DNA of 62,995 nucleotides, the filler included, from Reclinomonas americana ATCC 50394 (lineage: Eukaryota): the NCBI GenBank assembly GCA_048213135.1. It is 13 parts of 13 records of this genome, joined end to end, with 100 filler letters (N's around TTAATTAATTAA, not from the genome) between each part and the next. Parts side by side here need not be neighbours in the genome. Positions count along the whole stretch, not along the records: positions 1 to 3,338 come from AFZH01021684.1; positions 3,439 to 9,865 come from AFZH01021685.1; positions 9,966 to 15,327 come from AFZH01021686.1; positions 15,428 to 21,315 come from AFZH01021687.1; positions 21,416 to 25,600 come from AFZH01021688.1; positions 25,701 to 28,278 come from AFZH01021690.1; positions 28,379 to 34,611 come from AFZH01021691.1; positions 34,712 to 37,693 come from AFZH01021692.1; 5 more parts are not named here. One strand, given 5' to 3'. The translations under genes and the position numbers were made by a program. Within the stretch, counting starts at the first letter, position 1, and each line of letters starts with the position of its first letter. The notes beneath the pieces were generated by a model. It had not been told where the DNA came from and made no database searches. It saw nothing but the letters and a program-made list of their open reading frames with translations. Positions 71 to 58,598 of the stretch are shown here, piece by piece.

Positions 71-1188
71 AGACAGCAGCATGTTGCTGGCCATGATGCC
101 GTCGATGGTCAACATGGCATTGCAGTTTGCCGACACGCCGCTGGTGCGTGTGCCCTGCTTTTGTGTGTGGATGTGCGTGTACGAATCGTTTCTCATGTGA
201 CGCGGCAGACTCTTGAGCTTGGCGTCAAGATCTTCCGCCGGTGCATCAAGCTGTGCGGCAACTCCAGCGAGTACGAGGACTTTGACGACAGTGTCAGGGA
301 GCAATGTGAGTGCGTGTCCACGAGGGTGTGTGTCAAGAGTTAGTTTCCAACCCTGCGTGCAGTCTTTGCTCTTGCCAAGTCGTTTGGGCCGCGTTTCCTG
401 CGACACTTGGCCGCTCGCGGCGTCATCACCGAGGACATGAGCTTGAAGTTGTTCATGTTCACCTGCAAGCACATTGACCTGTCGGCCATTGGTGAGATCT
501 TTGCCATCGAGGACGAGGAGGAGCAGGGCGTGGTGCAAGCCCGCATTGCCAAGCGCAAGGTCAACATGCTTGTTCGTCTCTTTCTTCCCTGCTGCATCGT
601 CGCTCAAGTCGCCACGACCGGATGCAGGTGTTGACGTTTGACACATTTTCGTCGGCCGTGCGAGCCACGGCGCAGCTGATGCTGGAAGCGTCGTCGGCTG
701 CTGGCCCGCTGACGGCACTATCGCTTGTGCTGGTACGCCAACAGTTTCTCTCATTGTGATGTGTGATGGCTCGTCACTGAATAATATTGACGGGCATGCT
801 GTACAGCACGTTCGTCGGCTGCTGCTGTCACAAGAGACAACCTTTTCGCTGCTTCATCGGTACGCCGCGTTCTGCTTGTTGTGCCGACTTGCCGCTCAGG
901 CGCCACCAGCCGGTGAGTGCAATGACCACCTTCGGCACTCTCATGCATCACGCACTGTACTCACCACGTTTGGTACAGATCGACAGCAACTCACGGAAGT
1001 GATGGAGGAGGCCATGGCAGTGGTGCAGCACCCAGACACTCCAGTGTTGCGTGGTGTATGTGAGTGTGCGTGGACGTACTTGCCGTGCTGACCTCTTGCA
1101 CAGTGACAGTCCGTGGGCAGCCACGGCACTCGCCACCGGCATGGCCAACGCAATTCACGGAGTGCGTGCACTGGCCGCCGTCGAATGA
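71..1188 (+). CDS. 3' part of a multi-exon gene, helical (HEAT/ARM-like?) protein of unknown function; 5' end lies outside the window
   Basis: Six GT-AG-linked exons join in one frame (MLLAMMPSMVNMALQFADTPL|TLELGVKIFRRCIKL...|...PV|DSPWAATALATGMANAIHGVRALAAVE*). Stop TGA at 1186-1188. No family motif recognised. Confidence 0.6.
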
Positions 1189-1396
1189 GCTCCACTTCAT
1201 CGTTTTTGTTTTGTTGTTGTTTTGTGTGTCTTAAGTGTGTTTTGCATTCCCCGTTTTCTCTCCACAATTACCACTGTCGCAGGAAGAGAGGACGCAGCGT
1301 GCGCAATCATGTCGCTTGCGTCTGTCGCGATTGAAATCATAGAAAAAGAGGAATAAGCAGAAAAGACGTGTTTGTCTCTTTACTGCTGTCGCCACA

Positions 1397-2893
1397 TCAA
1401 TAGTGCCTGGCGCACGCCTCCTGAACTTCGTTCTTGATCGAATCCAGCAACCTCTTGCGCGCTCCTGGATTGATAGCAGCACAAACGTAGTACGACGGCA
1501 CGCTCACAAACGTGACGGGCCGCTTGTCCGAGTCGGCCAGCAGCAACACATTCAGCGGCTCTGTGCGCGCACATACACATATGGATGAGTCCAACGCACA
1601 GCGCGCTCACAATTTCTCTCCGTCGTCCTCTCACCGCCGTTGGCATCGTCGTCGGGCACCTCGACCGACGACATGGGCGCCACCACCATGTGCATACTGT
1701 CGCGCGCCGCGCTCTCCACATCCTCCACCGACCGCACACCGACGACCACACGACCCTCGGACTCGGAGGATGGATCTTCGTTCAGCGAGGGCATGGCGAC
1801 CGACATGGACGATCTTCTTTGCTTGGCCATCTTCGAGAGCATCAACACGAGACGGCAGCCGAGCTTCGAGTAACGCAGCACTGCGTGCGATCCGACCACA
1901 CTCTGCTCCAGCGTCTGCATGCATGACAAAGCAATATCAGTGGTGAGTCGCTGCGCAGCAGTTTTGTGAACGACGGCGAGTACGCACCATGCCATACGTC
2001 TGCCAGAACGACAGGTTGCCGGCCATATTATTAACATTGACACAAATGGCGCTAATGGGATCGCGCGAGGCACCACGAGCCGGATGTCTGGCACTGTTGG
2101 TCACCACCACGCCATATCCATCGGGGCTCTCCAGTGTGTACGCTGTCACATCGACCTCGCCCGTCGGCAACACCGACTCCACCGCTGTCTTAGTGGGGTA
2201 GCTCGTCTTGGCCACTCGAGCGAAAATGCTGCGCACGCACACACGCACACACGCACACACCAGTGAGCTCACGTGGCGCACACACACACGCTTTGCGTCT
2301 CTCTCACCTGTCACTGCAAATGCGCAGCGAGTTGAAGCCCGGGTCACGCTTGGCCGGGTCCAGACGGTGCCCGTAGTAGTACGTCAGCTCCAGCGCTGTG
2401 TGCGTCTCCTCTGCCCCATACGCCAACACACTCTTGCTCCAACGAATCAGTCGACCCGGCTGCTGATCGTCTTCTGCCTCGAATTCCTCGTGTCGCAACA
2501 CTGCACCGCCGCACCTGTGTGAGACACACACACACATACATACACACACGCGCACATGGACGGCGACACAAACCATACATGCCGAGCAGATTGGCAAAAA
2601 ACCGCAGATTTGCGTCTGTTTGACACACAAAAGTCAGGCACACACACACTCGCGCACACTGACAGAGAGACACACACACCTCGTGAGGAGATGGTGAGGG
2701 CATAGTGGAGCACACGTGCGCCTTCGACGGCCGACTCTGGCACCTTGACCTTGTGCTGCTGCTGCTGTTGCTGCAAGAGGTGCGCACGAGGCGACGACAT
2801 TCCACTGCTTGAAGAGGGAGCATCACCCCATCCACCGCGCGGTGTGCACGGCGCAGAGGCCTCGCCACGAGGAGTCAGCAGCGGCACCGACAT
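1397..2893 (-). CDS. hypothetical multi-exon protein
   Basis: ATG at 2893 (MSVPLLTPRGEAS...). Coding-like segments are separated by (TG)n-rich introns. Last exon EPLNVLLLADSDKRPV...ACARHY*. Exon chain only approximately resolved. Confidence 0.45.
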
Positions 2894-3138
2894 GTTTTGT
2901 ATGCTCTTCTCTCTCTCTCCTCCCTCTGGCGATTCCGATGGCGTTTTTTGCGGTTGTCCGTTTTTTGTGCACGAACATGAGCTTCAGCTTTTGGGACCAC
3001 ACATACACACACATATGCACGCACACACGCTCATTCAGTGCACTGCGTGGTGTGTGTGTGTGTGATGGGGAGTGAACATGCATCCTCTCGTCGAATGATA
3101 GAAAACGCGAGATAAGGATTTTTTACTGTAGTGAACGG

Positions 3139-3338
3139 CTATTTTTCCGGGAAGAAACCTCCCGACCGCAATGCCGAAATGGAGACGTACGGCTTGATCG
3201 GCGGCGCCACGCCCGCCAGCTGCAGTCGCGTGTAGTAGCTCTGGCGCAACGCAAGCATGCTGCGTGGCTTCGGGCGTGCAGAGGGCGCAGGCGGAGCCAT
3301 CTCGGCCATGGCCCACAGATCCACGGCCTGCGATATTG
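3139..3338 (-). CDS. 3'-terminal exon of an unknown gene, cut by the assembly gap
   Basis: Open frame from the gap to TAG at 3139 (...MAEMAPPAPSARPKPRSMLALRQSYYTRLQLAGVAPPIKPYVSISALRSGGFFPEK*). Confidence 0.35.
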
Positions 3339-56700: not shown

Positions 56701-58013
56701 CACCGCCACAGCATATGGTCTCCTTCTGATGGTCGGCATTGCCACTGGCTCAGAAGCAACAGCAGCAGCAGAGGGCGAGGTCACTGCCGAGCTGCTAGAC
56801 CGTGTTGGTCTCTTCTGCATCCTCCGCTGCTGCTGCTGCTGCTGCCTCCGCCTTCTCCTCCTTTCCTCATCATCATCGTCCTCATCATCCAACAACAAGT
56901 CATCGTCCTGATCCAAATCATCATCCTCGTCCGACTCCCCCAACTCAAAGTCTTCATCATCGTCATCATCACTCAGCGCCAACATGGCCGCCGCATGCAC
57001 CGCCCTTCGCGCCGCTGCACGACCACCAGCACCACCACCACCCATTGTCCCTCCCGACCTCCGCCCACTGCCATCAGCATTCATCCCACGGTGCGGAGAC
57101 GCTCGATGATGCGACGCGTATGGTTTCGATCGCTCACGGTACACCATCGGAGCTGCCGCACTGGCCAACGACGACGCTCCGGTCCCATAAGGAGTCGCCG
57201 ACGAGGCCAGTGCCGACAACGTCGCCGCCGAAGTCGATGCCGACGACGGTGGTCCACCCGTCCCAAACAGCGGCCACACCAACGGTTGCCCACTGGGCGT
57301 CACAGCCGGCGCACCACGCTTCGTCCTCTCCTGCAAGCGCAACCGCAAGCGATAGAAATGTGCATCGATTCCACGAACAGTCCGCGACGGATGAAACACC
57401 TCTGGAAAGTGCGCCAACAGTTCCTTTGCATTTAACCGCCCCGTCAAGTTGAACTGCGTGCACGGAGGCGAGTGCGCAAGCGAAAGAGTGAGCAAGTGAG
57501 CGCACGACGTGATGTGCGATGTCACCCCACAAACGCAACTGCATCCCACAGAAAACTCTCCTCCTCATCGGTCCACACGGTGCGCCCGCCAACCACACGC
57601 GGACCATCCGACATACCCATCGCCAACGCTGTGTGTTGCTGCTGCTGTTGTTGTTGTTGTTGTTGTTGCTGACCGGGGGAAGTCACGGGCGAAACCAAAG
57701 ACGACGGACTGTCGGGCACCACAATCGCCGCTGGTGGCGGCGACGACACAGGCACAACTGGAGGAGCTGGCGGCGGTGGTGGTGGAGGTAATACAACAGC
57801 GGGAGGCGGAGTCGGAACGGGCTGTGGCGGAGGTGGTGATGTGGGCATGGACATCATCGCCACCTGCGCCGCCTCTTGTTGTTCTTGTTGTTGTTGTTGT
57901 TGAATCTGCTGCAAGTGCTGCTGCTGCTGTTGCCGCATCTGAAGCAGCTGCTGCTGTTGCACGCGCGCCAGCAGCGCCAGCATCGCCGCGGTGGCCGCGT
58001 CCGGCGCTGACAT
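53781..58013 (-). CDS. MCRS1: MCRS1/MSP58-like protein (poly-Q/Pro N-terminus, C-terminal FHA domain)
   Basis: WTDEEESFL...ELLAHFPEVFHPSRTVRGIDAHFYRLR resembles the MCRS1 middle region. LGVLRGYACAFLVDAPV|CLFGRG...MSREHF...FALIVFGKAPVLLNGQPV...LWHNSFIQ|TCGLSFVFE is an MCRS1-type FHA. The exon chain between these blocks is not fully resolved. Confidence 0.65.
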
Positions 58014-58138
58014 CAAAGTGTGTGATGTTGACAAACCTGCTCGCGCTGTCCGCGACTGTCCATTGCAACTCCTCGCACACACGCGTGTGTCAATCCTCTC
58101 TGGCTCTTAGTCATCGTGTGTGTGTGTGCTGGTGTTCC

Positions 58139-58434
58139 ATGAGCCGACCGCGATACGCTGTGTTCCTCCATGTGTACGATCTGTCACCGGTGAGTTCACT
58201 GCCTCCTCTGAGAGTGCGTGTCTCTGTCTCTCTCCCTCTGTGTGCGTGTGTCACGAGTGTGTGTGTGTGTGTGTGTGTGTGTGTGTACATGTGTGTGTGT
58301 GTGTGTGCGAGGATGATGCTCACAATTCTCACACACATTTTCTCTCTTCTATTTTTGCGGTTGGGACAGGTGAACGAGTGGTCGTTCTGGGCGGGTCTCG
58401 GAGCCTTTCACTCGGGCGTCGAAGTGCACAACAC
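58139..58434 (+). CDS. PPPDE/DeSI family peptidase, first two exons
   Basis: VFLHVYDLSP|VNEWSFWAGLGAFHSGVEVHN contains the VYDL and catalytic HSGV motifs. Confidence 0.88.
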
Positions 58435-58598
58435 GTTGCGTGTATAGACAAGCCAGATTATCTTTCAAACGCGTGTTGCTGATCGTCGGCAAGCAGTGNN
58501 NNNNNNNNNNNNNNNNNNNNNNNNNNNNNNNNNNNNNNNNNNTTAATTAATTAANNNNNNNNNNNNNNNNNNNNNNNNNNNNNNNNNNNNNNNNNNNN

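Follow-up and report, generated by a model that had tools for sequence, protein, structure and literature searches.

Shifted (+1) registers of pairing between the U1 small nuclear RNA (snRNA) and the donor have been described at atypical human 5′ splice sites (Roca and Krainer, 2009, as reported in PMC4856993 and PMC11162779), and the accessible text of Tan et al. (2016; PMC4856993) puts the validated noncanonical U1 registers together at 1.5% of 201,541 human sites. The bulge +2/+3 register (Roca et al., 2012) is credited there with 68 predicted sites, 54 after curation, in the same set. As outlined in the accessible text of PMC11162779, the position of U1 defines the splice site only roughly and the cut is set by U5 and U6; at the STAT3 tandem donor, the same source describes a U6 register in which four nucleotides (nt), not five, separate the cut from the G:C pair. 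In other lineages, the part of the preprint by Roy and Bowser that could be consulted (bioRxiv 10.1101/2022.06.08.495308) reports a U1 end ACAAAC with GUUUGU donors in Entamoeba and a U1 end ACGUAC with GUGCGC donors in Mastigamoeba balamuthi. The present analysis concerns a single 63-kb window of eukaryotic DNA, namely the whole stretch of 62,995 nt from Reclinomonas americana ATCC 50394, with about 57% GC and twelve masked gaps. About one intron in five begins here with a GTTGCG(T)-type signal, that is, with the ordinary donor GTGCGT moved one base inward. The existence and abundance of this class are well supported, and the data suggest that two registers are in routine use when the splicing machinery of this organism recognizes intron starts. 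In a search of the full-text literature, subscription papers and supplements being outside its scope, no account of a lineage-wide class of shifted donors was found.

As in the human +1 shifted register, to the extent that the accessible texts cover it, the cut retains its GU, the rest of the motif lies one base further downstream and the exon does not end in G; the human model oligonucleotide is ACA/GUCAAGUAU (here and below a slash marks the cut), and U1 binding is uncoupled there from the exact cut (PMC4856993). Unlike the human registers (1.5% for all types), the shifted class accounts here for about 17–23% of modelled introns, its core hexamer is the commonest donor and it has a tight consensus of its own with C at +5. 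The human bulge +2/+3 register, in the same accessible text, likewise has an extra U after GU and a downstream consensus moved one base, but it keeps the slot of the G at −1, which is depleted here. With Mastigamoeba, Mamiellales and Thecamonas, as they appear in the consulted part of the preprint, the window has in common a GC-rich ordinary donor of the GUGCGY type, although the ordinary +6 base is T here (48/75) and not C. The idea that snRNA ends may change with the donor consensus is common to these systems and to the present case; that account gives one consensus per genome and no shifted class, the terms shift, bulge, register and GUUG being absent from its text, whereas two registers are found here in the same genes. 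Like the STAT3 tandem donor, the present sites would depart from a cut-to-U6 G:C distance of five nt, but at STAT3 the distance is four (a shift of −1) at one site, while here it would be six (a shift of +1) in a fifth of introns.

A sequence-only reading of the window had listed 24 introns beginning with GTTGCG(T/C) or GTTGAGT, mostly after exon ends other than G. All 24 positions carry the motif on the strand given for them (GTTGCGT at 19, GTTGCGC at three and GTTGAGT at two), and the last exon base is not G at 22 of them (A 10, T 8, C 4, G 2, the two G being at 19821 and 21857). GTTACG is likewise read at the related sites 8370 and 25822, and GTTTCG donors do occur, being modelled at 8950 (+) and 3910–3979 (−). 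Introns were called with a small generalised hidden Markov model written for the window and trained on the window itself, which used 3-periodic coding statistics, an intron length prior, an acceptor matrix and a branch motif. In a donor-blind parse the donor model was reduced to GT, while a later parse used a self-trained hexamer table for +1 to +6. The donor-blind parse recovers 15 of the 24 listed donors exactly, and its most frequent donor hexamer is GTTGCG (14/108 introns, 45–120 nt); the hexamer-trained parse recovers 21 and the final set 22. This final set comprises 22 gene models and 161 introns, including 132 of 45–130 nt, which fall into a shifted class (GTTN[C/A]G, n = 30), an ordinary class (G at +5, n = 75) and a remainder in neither class (n = 27). 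GTTGCG opens 22 of the 132 short introns, and the wider shifted class represents 30 of them (23%), or 34 of all 161 introns, distributed over 12 of the 22 gene models.

The frequency of the motif is above what the base composition of donors would give, since in one count GTTGCG opens 20 of 115 modelled short introns as compared with 1.18 expected from independent positions. Over both strands, GTTGCGT is present in 34 copies versus 14.4 (standard deviation 4.0) in dinucleotide-preserving shuffles, none of 100 shuffles reaching 34, and chance occurrence of the motif is rejected on this count. Modelled donors make up 18 of these 34 copies as compared with 17 of the 128 copies of GTGCGT. Unmodelled copies of GTTGCGT are located at 22918, 23014, 32689, 33193, 5350, 12138, 47356 and 49262 (+) and at 13263, 11500 and 49721 (−); several of the unused copies lie in implausibly long modelled introns or in stretches free of models, so that the class may be undercounted.

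The register of the class can be read from its flanks. On a donor matrix built from the 75 ordinary donors, GT columns ignored, the ordinary donors score 2.75 and the shifted sites have a mean score of −6.89 in the normal register versus +3.80 when moved one base, in agreement with a distinct and abundant class of donors in which the motif as a whole has moved by one base. G precedes the cut in 3/30 shifted sites versus 54/75 ordinary ones (Fisher p = 4e-9), the latter count putting a figure on the earlier remark that ordinary donors mostly follow G, and A precedes it in 17/30 versus 2/75 (p = 9e-10). G at −1 is even less frequent in the shifted class than G in exons at large (0.32; binomial p = 0.005), and the same trend is found in the donor-blind parse, where the −1 base is A 11, T 5, C 2 and G 3 at shifted sites (G 3/21) and G in 37/56 at ordinary ones. 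The shifted −1 base (A 17, C 3, G 3, T 7) resembles the ordinary −2 base (A 26, C 18, G 12, T 19; chi-square p = 0.16) and not the ordinary −1 base (p = 6e-11), hence +1G seems to lie in the slot of −1G and −1A in that of −2A. Similarly, the shifted −2 base differs little from the ordinary −3 base (p = 0.11) and more from the ordinary −2 base (p = 0.0125). The earlier proposal that these donors compensate for a missing −1G is thus kept as to the dependence on the −1 base but is less apt as a description, +1G seeming to fill the slot itself. Nine other donors carry a +6 G but lack the T at +3 (GTGCCG, GTATTG, GTGCTG and others), with −1G in 6/9; they include 6418, 40868 and 10456 (+) and 13887, 12484 and 49259 (−), and may be a minor class with a bulge further in or errors of the gene models.

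At the sites where homology can be used, it places the cut before the G. An MCM5 profile was derived from 50 full-length homologues and every frame-compatible pair of cuts was scored, GT or AG not being required; a BEACH profile of 22 sequences was applied likewise. For the MCM5 intron 53007–53086 (+; aca/GTTGAGT), homology sets a length of 80 nt with 203.0 bits, the best of 1881 candidate cuts, and /GTTGAGT...GCAG/ is the only GT-AG pair among the listed 80-nt cuts at 199.7–203.0 bits. For 53298–53366 (+; gaa/GTTGCGT), it sets 69 nt with 176.7 bits, the top of 2421 candidates, /GTTGCGT...GCAG/ being the only GT-AG pair among the listed 69-nt cuts at 174.7–176.7 bits. The third MCM5 intron of the class, 51116–51189 (+; gat/GTTGAGT, 74 nt), reaches 58.7 bits as compared with 59.0 for the best of any cut and 45.2 for the next GT-AG pair. 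On the BEACH profile, the related donor at 8370–8437 (+; cga/GTTACGC, 68 nt, in the BEACH domain) has 143.9 bits versus 146.2 for the best cut and 135.4 for the next GT-AG pair; this profile also supports 8724–8800 (GTGCGT) and 8564–8624 (GTTTGT), and at 8009 (GTTTCG) its best cut is a non-GT-AG one at 163.2 bits, GT-AG pairs having 155.5–157.4 bits. In CAP, the intron 36283–36661 (+; gtc/GTTGCGT, 379 nt) separates exon 36130–36282, which ends with Pfam CAP_N positions 63–100, from exon 36662–36745, whose residue 2 begins positions 102–128, and the two parts are contiguous. The cut before G claimed in MCM5 is thereby borne out at 51116, 53007 and 53298 by the profile scans, and that in CAP at 36283 by Pfam continuity.

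The other MCM5 donors are GTGCGG, GTGCGT, GTGCGC and GTTCGT, each preceded by G. The P-loop domain of MCM5 also contains an in-frame 69-nt intron without stops at 52504–52572 (+; agt/GTTAGT...GCACAG), with 508 bits spliced versus 487 unspliced on the MCM5 profile and Pfam MCM positions 105 then 108 on its two sides. When the same scan was made on MCM5 of eight unrelated metagenome contigs from other eukaryotes, none of 25 junctions had GTTGCG or GTTGAG, the introns beginning with GTAAGT, GTATGT and similar hexamers; a metagenome scan with an MCM5 exon listed 80 loci, none of them close (≤82% identity over part). Homologue searches with a CAP open reading frame (ORF) and a HECT exon gave no matches, so that 35581, 35805 and 23760 are without a profile-level check, and PDB searches with the two HECT exons gave matches too weak to use.

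The reading frame had been said to fix the cut before the G at 23 sites. This stands in the cases checked by homology, while the frame by itself constrains the cut less: the lengths of 17/22 modelled introns are not divisible by three, but 14/22 have alternatives, and only 8/22 have no other in-frame pair of GT and AG at a distance of up to 15 nt from the two ends. The Rab1 intron at 43335 cannot be retained as a simple frame-fixed one. In this Rab1-like gene (43287–43745, +), exon 1 ends with ...KLLLI at 43334, the P-loop GDSGVGKS begins at 43701 with codon GGC, and the two pieces align to the adjoining residues 21 and 22 of one Rab1A chain; a single GT-AG intron 43335–43701 shifts the frame, so that the two pieces can be joined only through an exon of one nucleotide or by an intron that is not GT-AG. 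The sequence CTCTGCAG/G/GTGCGT at 43447–43461 (+) suggests a one-nucleotide exon between two GT-AG introns, or recursive splicing. Intron A would be 43335–43454 (+; att/GTTGCGT ... CTCTGCAG, 120 nt), with an acceptor score of 6.5 (75th percentile of short introns), the putative exon G would be at 43455 (+) and would join codon ATT (43332–43334) to GGC (43701–43703), and intron B would be 43456–43701 (+; G/GTGCGTTC ... GCGCGCAG, 246 nt). Reports on Arabidopsis and Fusarium, consulted in part, describe exons of one nucleotide. A single TT-AG intron cut after G is a possible alternative.

In their other characters the shifted introns resemble their neighbors. A branch-like YTNAY is found 8–40 nt before the pyrimidine-rich YAG acceptor in 28/30 shifted and 62/75 ordinary introns (random 33-nt windows, 26%), the acceptors are the same as those of ordinary introns, with GCAG or ACAG in 24/30, and the median length is 69.5 nt as compared with 68 nt. 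U12-like donors ([A/G]TATCCT) were searched for and found in 0/161 modelled introns, and a reading as introns of the minor spliceosome was rejected. The shifted introns are, apart from the Rab1 exception, best explained as genuine GT-AG introns of U2 type in a GC-rich and intron-dense eukaryote with a median intron of about 70 nt.

They form a second donor grammar, [A/T]/GTTGCG(T) and more rarely GTTGAG, GTTACG or GTTTCG, which is the ordinary G/GT[G/A/T]NGT displaced one base inward. It can be hypothesized that U1, in its ribonucleoprotein particle (snRNP), binds both donor classes alike, as in the +1 shifted register of a few human sites: +1G of a shifted site would occupy the slot of the exon −1G and the exon −1A that of −2A, +2U would be a single mismatch and +3 to +7 (UGCGU) would pair as +2 to +6 ordinarily do; A/GUUGCGU would then be read as AG/UUGCGU, one mismatch from AG/GUGCGU. 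The later machinery (U6/U5/Prp8), in choosing GU, would then place the cut one base upstream of the U1 register. U6, if its pairing with the conserved G and U is retained at their new positions +6 and +7, would need a +1 register or a looped-out U. The chances that such a +1 shifted U1 register, with its putative snRNA contacts, is the mechanism appear evenly divided. A fuller version, in which two grammars coexist, the U6 ACAGAGA box pairs with the cut six, not five, nt upstream of the G:C pair and a U1 G possibly stands opposite the invariant C, is tentative and has to be regarded as doubtful; a +1 U6 register has not been described so far.

Several observations weigh against this +1 shifted U1 register or against the data on which it is built. 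Pairing of the shifted sites with the standard U1 5′ end, as modelled by RNAduplex, has a mean of −2.0 kcal/mol and no consistent register, as compared with −5.8 for ordinary sites, and such weak pairing means that standard U1 alone explains the shifted sites poorly. The base at +5 is C in 27/30 shifted sites (C at +4 in 32/75 ordinary donors), and this near-invariance, which may hint at pairing with G in some snRNA, is not explained by standard U1 or U6 pairing. G at −2 in 12/30 shifted sites is not predicted by a pure shift on a standard U1, and the Rab1 intron breaks the frame as set out above. As regards the calls, 27/132 short introns are in neither class, a group that certainly includes mis-calls, one of them having been moved by BEACH homology from 8552 to 8564; the recovery of 21–22 of the 24 listed donors is partly circular because the trained models learned the motif themselves; and all data come from one window, in which every junction rests on homology or on the gene models of this analysis.

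A bulged U provides another account of the same motif: U1 (and U6) would keep +1G and +2U in their normal slots, with the extra U at +3 (or +2) looped out and GCGU pairing as +3 to +6. The bulge +2/+3 is a proven human register in the accessible text of Tan et al. (PMC4856993), U6 pairing with G and U at +6/+7 needs some looping-out in any case, and a shift with one mismatch cannot be separated from a one-base bulge by sequence alone. When pairing was modelled with the ACGUAC-type U1 end reported for Mastigamoeba, 15/30 shifted sites paired in the shifted register and 8/30 in the bulged one. A bulge keeps the −1 slot, however, so that −1G should stay favored, whereas it falls below the exon background; the exon flank is moreover the ordinary flank moved one base, which speaks for a shift of U1 by one base and less for a bulge, and the bulge-like +6G donors without +3T mostly keep −1G, in a small sample where some calls may be wrong. 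A bulge is therefore considered unlikely. Similarly improbable is a dedicated or co-evolved snRNA, that is, a U1 (or U6) with an altered pairing stretch, or two U1s matching GUGCGU and GUUGCGU. Such co-evolved U1 ends are reported for Entamoeba and M. balamuthi in the part of the preprint consulted (bioRxiv 10.1101/2022.06.08.495308), the ACGUAC-type end strengthens the modelled pairing from −2.0 to −5.2 kcal/mol at shifted sites and from −5.8 to −7.85 at ordinary ones, and the +5C of the class would suit a G in the snRNA. The same part of the preprint nevertheless gives Thecamonas and Micromonas a standard U1 despite donors with +4C, and full complementarity of a U1 to GUUGCGU would, alone, leave the avoidance of −1G unaccounted for; neither U1, U6 nor any other snRNA gene was found in the window by Rfam, even at E ≤ 1.

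The class could also owe its uniformity to descent from a mobile element (“introner”), the introns being copies of one insertion that share the GTTGCGT end, as its tight motif and similar lengths might suggest. This range of lengths is common to all short introns, the best matches between intron interiors are low-complexity runs, and blastn pairs at E ≤ 1 number 16/435 within the class as compared with 159/2775 among ordinary introns and 103/2250 between the two; with no excess of interior similarity within the class, the introner reading was rejected and is hardly credible. An artefact, in which the motif would be frequent by chance or composition and the true cuts would lie at another GT or after the G (G/TTGCG), is very improbable as well. 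It could draw on the small number of introns (8/22) that are free of alternative pairs, and on Rab1, where a cut after G with the AG at 43701 restores the frame as a TT-AG intron. But the copy number exceeds that of every shuffle, the parse that is blind to donors picks these sites, the control MCM5 genes lack the motif at their junctions, and with the five lengths fixed by homology a cut after G would make the intron end in GG or GC and not AG.

The remaining sites of the list, of which all but 5003 (−) and 58435 (+) are in the final set (22/24), are distributed along the window as follows. Intron 1046–1103 (+; agt/GTTGCGT, 58 nt) comes from a strand-level parse and the final set, has a length of 1 modulo 3 and meets a stop if retained. 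The donor-blind parse and the final set give 5537–5604 (+; cat/GTTGCGT, 68 nt) in the BEACH-domain gene, 18671–18735 (+; att/GTTGCGT, 65 nt), 20700–20763 (+; aga/GTTGCGT, 64 nt) in the protein-kinase domain, 23760–23824 (+; agt/GTTGCGT, 65 nt) in the HECT domain, 34977–35049 (−; cca/GTTGCGC, 73 nt), 35805–35873 (+; gca/GTTGCGT, 69 nt, in frame and open) in CAP and 39915–39985 (+; gat/GTTGCGT, 71 nt). The exons flanking 20700–20763 match Pfam Pkinase 110–146 then 158–193, roughly contiguous, those flanking 23760–23824 match Pfam HECT 177–244 then 271–305, and 35805–35873 is less secure because the start of Pfam CAP_N overlaps it. The donor-blind parse also gives 18209–18289 (+; gcc/GTTGCGT, 81 nt), which follows the Macro-domain exon and has a stop at codon 2 if retained, and the two introns after G, 19821–19896 (+; acg/GTTGCGT, 76 nt) and 21857–21921 (+; atg/GTTGCGT, 65 nt), both without an alternative in-frame GT-AG pair. 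The hexamer-trained parse and the final set contribute 35581–35705 (+; gaa/GTTGCGC, 125 nt) in CAP, where the donor-blind parse has its donor at 35572, 40525–40589 (+; aga/GTTGCGC, 65 nt), 40672–40737 (+; aga/GTTGCGT, 66 nt), 47437–47492 (+; aga/GTTGCGT, 56 nt), 55351–55425 (−; gtc/GTTGCGT, 75 nt) and 57454–57539 (−; gca/GTTGCGT, 86 nt), the last in the YL1-domain gene.

The two sites outside the final set are unverified. The candidate GTTGCGT donor at 5003 (4997–5003, −) follows a 12-nt stretch, CTAACACTGTCT (5004–5015, −), which lies after a good acceptor (...GTGCAG; ...CTCTGTGCAG) and may be a micro-exon. At 58435–58496 (+; cac/GTTGCGT ... GCAAGCAG, 62 nt), a plausible AG stands 2 nt before a masked gap. 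Beyond the list, additional introns of the class were modelled at 4285–4354 (−; aga/GTTGCGC, 70 nt; strand-level parse and final set), at 7489–7560 (+; cga/GTTGCGC, 72 nt), 9419–9495 (+; cga/GTTGCGT, 77 nt) and 9666–9727 (+; aca/GTTGCGA, 62 nt) in the donor-blind parse, and at 47282–47355 (+; agg/GTTGAGG, 74 nt) in the donor-blind and hexamer-trained parses. The GTTTCG donors belong to introns 8950–9028 (+; aga/GTTTCGT, 79 nt; donor-blind and hexamer-trained parses) and 3910–3979 (−; tct/GTTTCGT, 70 nt; strand-level parse).

Gene content was assigned by a Pfam search with the 150 longest ORFs and 125 modelled exons. On the plus strand it comprises a BEACH/WD40 gene (about 5.5–10.8 kb), Macro, protein-kinase and HECT domains (17.7–24 kb), CAP (35.4–37.7 kb), the Rab1-like GTPase (43.3–44.9 kb) and MCM5 (50.6–53.6 kb), and on the minus strand an amine oxidase (24.1–25.5 kb), a cwf21-domain gene (49.2–50.6 kb), the YL1-domain gene and a haem peroxidase (58.6–59.6 kb). 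The best MCM5 relatives among the 120 matches listed reach only about 64% identity and are scattered over many eukaryote groups, which indicates a lineage without close relatives in that collection. The masked gaps, each made of 44 N, 12 bases and 44 N, occur at twelve places within 3339–58598, spaced by about 5 kb, and several gene models are broken by them, e.g., at 9866–9965, 21316–21415, 37694–37793 and 58499–58598. A transfer RNA (tRNA) gene at 60829–60911 (+) is the sole Rfam match in the window at the gathering score; it has 83 nt as compared with the 71 positions of the model and may have an intron or a long variable arm. At E ≤ 1 over the whole window, Rfam gives besides the tRNA only weak, chance-level microRNA and small-RNA matches.

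As far as the accessible text of PMC4856993 goes, shifted or bulged donor registers have so far been known from human genes alone, where they are a rare exception, and the view of U1 as a rough marker, with U5 and U6 setting the cut, rests in that of PMC11162779 on few reporter genes. If the commonest donor hexamer of a genome is a shifted form, such registers can become a main grammar. In such a genome, gene finders that use a single position matrix will misplace a fifth of the introns. It would also offer thousands of natural test cases for the placement of the cut, and specific features of its U1 and U6 are predicted that can be checked in the genome. Should the reading with two grammars and a +1 U6 register also be true, the organism would offer a natural setting where U1 binding is uncoupled from the choice of the cut at thousands of introns.

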